Shown here in pieces: positions 56,598 to 59,314 of a DNA stretch of 64,000 bases. Position 1 is the stretch's first letter, and each line of letters opens with the position of its first letter. The translations under genes were made by a program, and so were the position numbers. This stretch comes from Cladosporium halotolerans (taxonomy: Eukaryota). The stretch lies in contig NW_027191467.1 in the NCBI RefSeq assembly GCF_011745625.1, positions 310,001-374,000 of the forward strand. The letters are read 5' to 3'. Below the pieces are notes generated by a model, which saw only the letters and a list, made by a program, of their open reading frames with translations, searched no databases and had not been told where the DNA came from.

Positions 56598-56879
56598 GTT
56601 CGCCGAAATGGTCGTCTGTCAATAGCCGCGACGTTACCCGTCGGCTAGTGCGGAGAGATGCCCGCTTGACTGCAGCTGGAGCTCCGCTGCGGAGATCTGT
56701 ACAGTGCGTGCCCTCGTATGTGACTTGCAGGGCGCGCGATTGCCGACTTGCTGTTATCTGCTCGGTAGGTAGATTCATCATTTTCGTCTCGTCGAGTCAC
56801 CCTGTATCAAAGACCTTTTCTGTTTCAGAAATCAAGACCAAGAAATTCCCCTATCACAACCCTACCAACATACACCACC

Positions 56880-58445
56880 ATGCCCAGCATCTCAGAAATC
56901 GCCAATGAACACCGCCCCGACCTATCCAAATATGAATCCCTCTACAAACACTTCCACGCCAACCCCGAGCTCTCCAACCAAGAGAAAGAAACCGCCGCCC
57001 GCTGCGTCGCCGAGCTAGAATCCATCTCCCCGGACTTCAACATCAAACCCAGCATCGGCGGCCACGGCCTCGCCGCCACCCTCGCCAATGGCCCCGGCCC
57101 AACCGTCCTCCTGCGCGCCGACTTCGACGCCCTCCCCATCCAAGAGCGCACCGGCCTCCCCTACGCCAGCACCAAGCGCATGCGCGACGCCGACGGCGCC
57201 GAGAAACCCGTCATGCACGCCTGCGGCCACGACATGCACACCACCTGCCTCCTCGGCGCGGCCGAGACCCTCGCTGCTTCTCGCGGCGAATGGTCAGGGA
57301 CTCTGGTCCTCGTCTTCCAGCCGGCCGAGGAGCGCGGGACGGGCGCGCAGGCGATGGTCGACGAAGGCTTGTATGATCCGAAGCGGCACGGGGTTCCGGT
57401 GCCGGATGTGGTTCTGGGCGCGCATGTTATGCCGCATCGCGCGGGTGTGATTGGGACGCGCAAGGGCCTGATCATGAGTGCGGCGGATAGTATGAGGGTT
57501 ACGATGCATGGGAGGGGCGGGCATGCGAGTATGCCGCATAGGCTGGTGGATCCGGTTGTTATGGCTGCTAGTACTGTCATGAGGCTTCAGGGTAAGGGTT
57601 TCGAGGGATGGGGATTGGGGGTTGGGTATTTGAGCTGACTGGGTTGTAGTATGTTTCGCTTCGATCGGGAGGCGTTTTGAATCAGTTCCTTCGGGGTCGA
57701 TGGGCTTTCTCAAGACATTGGGAGCGGTTGAGATTTGAACAGTGATCGATTGGCTAACTCGTTTTGTCCAGACGATCGTCAGCCGCGAGGTCGACCCGTG
57801 AGTCGAGCCTTCTCCCCATCCGATATCAATCCAGAGTCGTCCTCACACCAAACCAAACACTAACACCCGCTCCCCAGCTACGACACCGCCGTCGTAACCT
57901 GCGCCAGCATCCAAGCCGGCGATGCAGAGAACGTCGTCATCGACGACGCGCGCCTCGCTATCGACGTGCGCACCACGAACCCGACAACCCGCAAAAAGAC
58001 CCTTGCCAGCATCCGCCGCATCGTCGCCGCCGAAGCCCTCGCCGGCAACGCCGTCAAAGACCCCACCTTCCAAGTCACCCGCTCCTTCCCGCTGACGATC
58101 AACGACGCCAAAATCACCGAGAAGCTCGAGTCCTCGTTCAGCGCGCACTTCCCCACGGACCGCCATCATTATGTCACGAGCGTATCGCAGCTGGCGGGGA
58201 GCGAGGATTTTAGTATTTTGGCGAGTGCGGTTGAGAAGCCGTATAGTTTTTTCGTGTACGGGGGGACGGATCCGGAGAAGTGGGATCAGGCGGAGAGGGA
58301 GGATAGGTTGATGGAGGATGTGCCTGTCAATCATAGTGGGTTGTTTGCGCCGGTGATTCAGCCCACGCTGAAGACGGGGTTGGATGGGTATGTTATTGCG
58401 GCGTTGACTTGGTTGGTGAAGGGGTCGGGGGAGATTCCTGTCTGA
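56880..58445 (+). CDS. M20-family metal-dependent amidohydrolase; exons 56880-57590, 57772-57797, 57878-58445; the first intervening sequence is a stwintron
   Basis: HANPELSNQE, LLRADFDALP, MHACGHDMH, FQPAEERGTGA, GRGGHASMPH, RLQ|TIVSREVDP, IQAGDAENV, GSEDF and NHSGLFAP. Confidence 0.93.
57591..57771 (+). other. [D1,2] spliceosomal twin intron: internal intron 57592-57649 nested between nt 1 and nt 2 of the external donor
   Basis: CAG|G[GTAAGG...GCTGAC...TAG]TATGT...GCTAAC...CAG|ACG. Removing the internal intron creates GTATGT. Two-step splicing gives in-frame RLQ-TIVSREVDP, whereas one-step splicing frameshifts. Confidence 0.85.
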
Positions 58446-59314
58446 GTTCATGTAGGGTTAACTGTAGCATGACATGTATATGCGTTCTCGTGGTTCAGCC
58501 AGGATTATTTGGATCGCACTGCCAAAATCCACGTGAGATGTAAGGAATGTCAAGTCGTGGAAACGGATGGGTTTGTGATATAATACATCCTAGACAGGGA
58601 GAAAACGAATCATGAAGCGAAGAATAGCCATTGAGCGAATAATAACGATAGCTTGATGCAGTTACAGCAGGGGAACTCATTGAAGACTCGCGCTGTTTTG
58701 ATAGACCGGTGTAGCGCTTTGATTCCTGGCAATGCAATTAAATGTCAAGCTAGAAAAATCATCACAGCAGTCAGGAGTGGCCGCTCCATCTACCCTTGCA
58801 GTTGATAGAGTGTCTGCGCAAGAACTGCCTATTTTCCCAATCTTACGCGATCAGCCTGCCAATTGCTTCCAATTGATTCTGACGTTTGACGGATGCGTGA
58901 CGCACGGACGCACTCGATCGCCAGCAAGCCTTCACTTTTCTAAGGTCGAGCACGAGGGCATCGAGACGCCCCAACGACATCGCTCCACCACCCGCACGCC
59001 CGCACACTCGCAGTCGCTGTAAAAGACGACTCGCCAGTGCTCGCATCTGCTGCGCTGGACCATCGCACCCTGCCGCCCTGCTGACACACGCGCGCGTGCA
59101 GCGAGTCCCACCAGGCCAGCGTCTCCGCAATCGCAACCGCACACCATCACCACCGCCGTCGCCTCGCGCTCCATTGTCGCGCCCTATCAATGTTGCCTTC
59201 CGGATTGCGCCTGCCCACCACCTCCTCCCTCTCCCGAGCGGCGCTTCTGGTCTAAACGCCAGCGTTGCCTGGCTGGAGCTCGCATAGCTCCGGCTCCCTC
59301 GTCGCCGCTCCAGC

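Follow-up and report, generated by a model that had tools for sequence, protein, structure and literature searches.

The alternatively spliced stwintron found in the gene for the DHA1 antiporter (Fekete et al., 2017; PMC5587772) has an internal intron that divides the external intron's donor between G1 and U2, and the same split is present in a 181-nt element at 57591–57771 of the DNA analysed here (64 kb, the whole stretch hereafter being called the window). The [D1,2]/[A2,3] alternative described for the DHA1 antiporter needs a G as the first nucleotide after the stwintron, where the window has an A at 57772 (Fekete et al., 2017; PMC5587772). The unique [D1,2] stwintrons of Hypoxylon sp. CO27-5 (Fekete et al., 2022; PMC9024468) have a five-motif layout identical to that of the window element, and a shared trait is that splicing at the distal sites in a single step leaves a G and shifts the frame; however, they belong to a host of the Xylariales and to other genes, whereas the window comes from a Cladosporium-like Dothideomycete. 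A further difference from these cases (PMC9024468) is that the splicing documented here for the window element is that of the exon–exon fusion. The search formula that the stwintron authors use for [D1,2] stwintrons (Model A; PMC9024468) runs from a G with a full donor through a branch element, HAG with U2RWGY (TATGT in the window) and a second branch element to a final HAG.

The 'sister' [D1,2] stwintrons of the Hypoxylaceae and Xylariaceae (Fekete et al., 2025; PMC12403724) occupy positions that are empty in close relatives, as does the window element, but they carry near-terminal inverted repeats (NTIRE-10) and a symmetry-based fold (PMC12403724), both of which the window element lacks. When it was examined for the NTIRE-10 signature, no inverted repeat was found, and no similar copy within the 64-kb window. 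Introners, or introner-like elements, are defined by many near-identical copies and are present in Dothideomycetes. They, too, occur in certain lineages and are missing from close relatives, but the window element has no similar copy within 64 kb.

All of the sequence features by which [D1,2] stwintrons are recognised are present in the window element, as is the exon fusion that the field uses for the same purpose (PMC12403724). The main text of three stwintron papers has no mention of amidohydrolase, M20 or Cladosporium, and in the wider stwintron literature that was searched Cladosporium occurs only in one unrelated passage. The [D1,2] stwintron at 57591–57771 is genuine, well formed and, as far as this literature goes, apparently undescribed.

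The host gene and its layout

An ATG at 56880 opens the reading frame of a predicted M20 amidohydrolase, and joining 56880–57590, 57772–57797 and 57878–58445 gives 1305 nt (434 codons and a stop) with no internal stops. Exon 1 matches Pfam Peptidase_M20 (PF01546; E 1.3e-22) and exon 3 matches M20_dimer (PF07687, the M20 dimerisation domain; E 2.7e-5); the gene has the Peptidase M20 arrangement of a catalytic domain with an inserted dimerisation domain (PF01546 plus PF07687), and its predicted product is an M20-family metal-dependent amidohydrolase. Full-length homologues of the protein are 70–84% identical to it. The best named homologue, with 84% identity over exon 1, is a Cladosporium fusiforme protein, and the host is therefore a Cladosporium-like Dothideomycete. 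Part of the gene was found in 20 sequencing runs, of which four were examined, all as assembled contigs: X3 (DNA) and X15, X16 and X18 (RNA). The features of the locus are as follows.

56880–57590, forward strand: exon 1, 711 nt, 237 codons, ending AGG CTT CAG in phase 0 (sequence and RNA contigs)
57591–57771, forward strand: the whole [D1,2] stwintron, 181 nt, apparent ends GG..AG (X15 and X16 RNA contigs; Model A match)
57591–57591, forward strand: G1 of the split external donor (sequence; identical in DNA assembly X3)
57592–57649, forward strand: internal intron, 58 nt, with GTAAGG at 57592–57597, GCTGAC at 57634–57639 and TAG at 57647–57649
57650–57771, forward strand: remaining external intron, 122 nt, with GCTAAC at 57753–57758 and CAG at 57769–57771 (Model A match)
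57772–57797, forward strand: exon 2, 26 nt, TIVSREVDP with the final codon split (ACG ATC GTC AGC CGC GAG GTC GAC CC)
57798–57877, forward strand: intron 2, an ordinary 80-nt GT..AG intron (GTGAGT..CAG), with the joint 57797^57878 in X15 and X16 RNA contigs
57878–58445, forward strand: exon 3, stop TGA at 58443–58445 (sequence, Pfam M20_dimer and RNA contigs)

The original prediction, made from the sequence alone, had placed the end of exon 1 at 57590, a GG start, a set of nested signals and the continuation TIVSREVDP from 57772, and every one of these coordinates proved exact on the sequence.

A donor divided by an internal intron

The internal acceptor TAG is followed directly by TATGTT (57650–57655), and G57591 together with 57650–57771 makes up an external intron of 123 nt whose donor, G plus TATGT, reads GTATGT. 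A gap of 7 nt separates the internal branch element GCTGAC from TAG plus TATGT (57647–57654), and one of 10 nt separates the external branch element GCTAAC from CAG at 57769–57771. The constituent introns (58 and 123 nt) are both above the 42-nt minimum. Three AG|T sites occur within the 181 nt, and a donor is created only at 57648/49 (G plus TATGT). Removal of 57592–57771 in one step leaves an extra G behind and shifts the frame, with a stop at residue 357, in agreement with the frameshift that had been foreseen for this route; excision of the internal intron alone gives a stop at residue 266. As 57772 is A, the [A2,3] route is closed and only the [D1,2] route is open.

Model A matches only once across the two strands of the 64 kb, and the match is exactly 57591–57771; GTAAGG is among its 24 donors and all spacings lie within its limits. 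A loose [D1,2] pattern of our own likewise gave one match on the two strands of the window, at 57591–57771, and the same pattern applied to 30 dinucleotide shuffles of the window gave five matches in all (mean 0.17). When the 181 nt were themselves shuffled with dinucleotides preserved, the full architecture was obtained in 1 of 100,000 shuffles, while partial motifs were commoner (per 100,000 shuffles, 1384 for the 5' G plus donor and 299 for branch element plus YAG plus TRNGT). Enumeration around the site yielded 47 single-step GT-AG, GC-AG or AT-AC introns whose removal leaves an open frame. Each of these adds or takes away residues, as does 57592–57742 with an insertion of ten residues, and none of the 47 reproduces the junction observed in RNA.

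Folding of the 181 nt is not out of the ordinary (z = 0.31), so structure gives no support, and neither near-terminal nor terminal inverted repeats were found within the stwintron. A perfect 9-nt inverted repeat (GGATGGGGA / TCCCCATCC) pairs 57606–57614 in the internal intron with 57813–57821 in intron 2; its second arm sits outside the stwintron, across exon 2, and the repeat may be due to chance. CAG ends both exon 1 (57588–57590) and the stwintron (57769–57771), and a related metagenome contig that lacks the intron (L001, below) has a single CAG. This duplication of CAG is compatible with a 3-nt target duplication, yet the YAG acceptor rule would by itself lead one to expect it too.

Spliced junctions in RNA contigs

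RNA contigs of X15 and X16, which come from different studies, join 57587 to 57769 with 181 nt skipped and three shared letters (CAG), and the joint slides over CAG so that it is equivalent to 57590^57772. The four possible cuts at this joint are CA..TC, AG..CC, GG..CA and GG..AG, none of them canonical. The same contigs join 57797^57878 with GT..AG ends and therefore represent spliced mRNA; exon 2 lies between the two joints in RNA contigs with no differences. The mature junction 57590^57772, predicted as an apparent GG-AG intron, was thus recovered in two studies, from strains that are 1–3% diverged. The X15 and X16 contigs read CAG ACG, which excludes for them the outcome of one-step removal (CAG G ACG) as well as that of the [A2,3] route, and this reading, together with the A at 57772, bears out the earlier judgement that the [A2,3] route is unavailable. 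The frameshifting one-step excision of 180 nt was found in none of the RNA contigs; use of the distal sites in one step is described as occasional missplicing in Xylariales (PMC12403724). X18 RNA contigs cover no part of the junction.

The RNA donors are strains 1–3% diverged in exons and not the window's own strain, and their genomic introns were not seen directly. X15 differs from the window at 9 of 902 letters, 7 of the 9 differences being synonymous, and X16 contigs have between 0 and 7 differences each (up to 7 of 171 letters), with 7 of 10 synonymous. The DNA assembly X3, from another study, has contigs that cover 56600–57797 and 57770–58700 with no differences. The intermediate joint 57591^57650 is not listed among the assembled contigs, which drop rare forms; the field detects such a splicing intermediate ('splinter') in raw reads (PMC12403724).

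One X15 RNA contig of 3669 nt, with a higher depth of 21, covers 56600–56897, enters the amidohydrolase frame for 18 nt and then diverges. It is probably a transcript of the upstream gene.

Probable nested signals in related lineages

The junction in the spliced product, RLQ|TIVSREV, is uninterrupted in 59 of the 60 best full-length homologues that were aligned with it. A total of 253 proteins were fetched; the site is recognisable in 223 of these and uninterrupted in 220. The remaining three carry foreign residues there. The public Cladosporium fusiforme model (P0001) has 37 of them exactly at the site (window residues 237/238), starting GK; P0150 (84% identical) has 22 after the site, starting GMY, and then a stop; and P0143 (98% identical to exon 1) continues after RLQ with seven, GMVSSGA, and then a stop. 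The P0143 sequence comes from unspliced ORF calling on genomic contigs of up to 80,861 nt. The expectation that gene predictors would mis-model the site was borne out by these sequences, with 37 foreign residues read into the C. fusiforme model and ORF calls that stop inside the intervening sequence. The P0001 model is also without about 23 conserved residues (window residues about 358–380) and seems to be mis-modelled at this second place too.

A plain phase-0 intron that is read through would be expected to give valine (GTN). All three exceptions instead continue with glycine (GGN), like the window, and none has valine. The signals in P0001, P0150 and P0143 were deduced by back-translation of the proteins and not from DNA, and on this basis the P0001 insert can encode a complete Model A stwintron, whose internal intron would be about 55 nt long and whose motifs would be G plus GTAAGA, AG plus TATGT, a branch element and AAG at the end. 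The same full layout was encodable in 0 of 20,000 random 37-residue windows and, when the insert itself was shuffled, in 1 of 20,000 cases. The P0150 tail back-translates to the 5' half (G plus GTATGT, a branch element and CAG plus TATGA) with an internal intron of about 59 nt, for which the controls gave 9 of 20,000 random windows and 38 of 20,000 shuffles, and that of P0143 back-translates to a G plus GTATGG start. The length of the internal intron thus runs from about 55 nt (P0001) through 58 nt (window) to about 59 nt (P0150). This argues that the nested layout is kept, at least in part, even as the sequences and their lengths change. Nested signals that are kept despite such drift are required by two-step splicing but not by one-step GG-AG splicing.

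Of the five residues that set P0143 apart from the window, X16 has three (V43F, P72R and E162D) and X18 has two (V43F and P72R). In the lineage that X16 most resembles, then, the genome also contains an intervening sequence that begins with GG, and the mRNA is cleanly joined.

Proposed two-step excision and its alternatives

We regard 57591–57771 as a donor-disrupted spliceosomal twin intron ([D1,2] stwintron) with a probability of about 0.85. Because the intervening sequence starts GG, the boundary of exon 1 offers no 5' splice site that could be used, and the most likely course would be two consecutive canonical U2 reactions under intron definition. In the first, the spliceosome would excise the 58-nt internal intron at 57592–57649 (GTAAGG ... 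GCTGAC ... TAG) and ligate G57591 to T57650, giving a GTATGT donor that would be present only after this ligation. In the second, the 123-nt external intron would be excised by way of GCTAAC and CAG 57771, so that 57590 would be joined to 57772 in frame (..RLQ|TIVSREVDP..). We infer here in which order the reactions run and that the intermediate exists, the fusion of the exons being what the RNA contigs contain.

The mature junction alone cannot separate one step from two, and in the contigs the intermediate was not observed, so that the same mRNA could in principle come from removal of the 181 nt in one reaction, between a non-canonical GG 5' splice site and CAG 57771, with the internal signals a coincidence. 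That coincidence would have to account for a nested architecture which occurs once in the window and arose in only 1 of 100,000 shuffles, and for a full layout that is encodable in one further lineage, with the 5' half in a second, despite differences in sequence and length. A G at intron position 2 is not known as a recognised class of U2 or U12 donor. We consider one-step GG-AG excision to be unlikely.

Two further explanations concern the material rather than the reaction, and both are less probable again. The RNA strains are 1–3% diverged, and related lineages without an intron at the site exist, as would be needed if the window strain's own gene were misspliced (a pseudogene, or one with a mostly frameshifted product) and the clean RNA junction came from intron-less relatives. 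Those intron-less lineages, however, have 81–84% protein identity to the window, against about 99% nucleotide identity for X15, and the closest relative, P0143 (98%), also has an intervening sequence. The frame is moreover intact over 434 codons and the differences in X15 and X16 are mostly synonymous (7/9 and 7/10), and we hold this explanation to be very improbable. The position of G57591 within a run of three G (57590–57592) invites the suspicion of an assembly error, the truth then being a plain phase-0 intron of 180 nt (GTAAGG..CAG). Against this, X3 has no differences over 56600–57797, and its identity over the region means that G57591 is no assembly error; the three other lineages have a GGN codon after Q, and the RNA contigs skip 181 letters and not 180. 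The original prediction had itself named a sequencing error at G57591 as a danger; after these checks on X3 and on the GGN codons that follow Q in three other lineages, the idea hardly merits belief.

History of the intron site

The protein of metagenome contig L001 is 81.8% identical to that of the window over 428 residues. L001 reads CTG CAG ACG ATT, with no intron at the stwintron site, and shares the position of intron 2 with the window. Eight clusters of unspliced ORF calls (P0144–P0149, P0151 and P0152; 81–84% identical) read RLQTIVSREVDP and stop in intron 2. Nine related lineages (these eight protein clusters and L001) are intron-less at the site and four lineages bear the intervening sequence; judged from these sequences, the stwintron site is lineage-specific. 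Orthologues with a plain phase-0 intron had been expected as a means of dating the gain of the internal intron. This expectation failed, as readable relatives have no intron at the site, and no plain intron was found there among relatives with readable DNA or unspliced ORF calls.

Metagenome loci L002–L044 (56–65% identical) read straight through both intron positions. They were considered as a guide to the history of the fungal introns and set aside as uninformative, L001 being the only close relative among L001–L044. This comparison covered L001–L044 of 80 loci, the remainder (L045–L080) being 50% identical or less. A second search with P0001 as the query added no further close relatives.

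Phylogenetic analysis placed the window, L001 and P0001 in a clade with support of 100/100 that was internally unresolved. In a tree of exon 1, the window grouped with P0143 (100/99) and P0150 with P0001 (95/94), and the intron-less lineages fell weakly between. The best exon-1 tree needs two changes, but the AU test did not reject a single clade of the four bearing lineages (p = 0.42). Both a single gain and a gain together with a loss would be compatible with the trees. The distribution suggests that the unit came or went whole, unlike on the route in which an internal intron lands in a plain intron that is older (PMC12403724).

A second, partial copy in another assembly

X3 has a second locus of equal depth, on a contig of 187,730 nt, that matches 57634–57797 with 16 differences (about 90% identical) and continues to 57827. 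It spans the body of the outer intron, exon 2 and 30 nt at the start of intron 2. It is identical over 57768–57799, the likeness of its flanks is below 90%, and none of the 12 differences listed touches the external branch element or the CAG. This locus may be either a paralogue that carries a conversion tract or the result of partial duplication. Its inclusion of exon 2 is unlike what a copy of the intron alone would show. A blastn search of the 64-kb window with 57591–57830 gave only the self-match.

Because the second locus in X3 is about 90% identical to the outer intron body and exon 2, one could suppose that the stwintron entered an empty site as one unit in the Cladosporium lineage and that its sequence is still being copied. 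We think this unlikely. If unit entry and copying were both true, the Cladosporiaceae would be a second and distant group, besides the Xylariales, with propagating [D1,2] stwintrons.

Significance

Stwintrons are an established but rarely reported class, to which the case described here adds a further member but no new principle. It has RNA support and comes from a group of airborne fungi that is very common and lies outside the Xylariales, the source of nearly all recent cases. The cost to annotation is visible in the public C. fusiforme model, which interrupts a conserved stretch with 37 false residues, and in metagenome ORF calls that are shortened. With four bearing and nine intron-less lineages, the site, which is not otherwise occupied, offers a compact system in which to ask whether nested introns are gained and lost as whole units.
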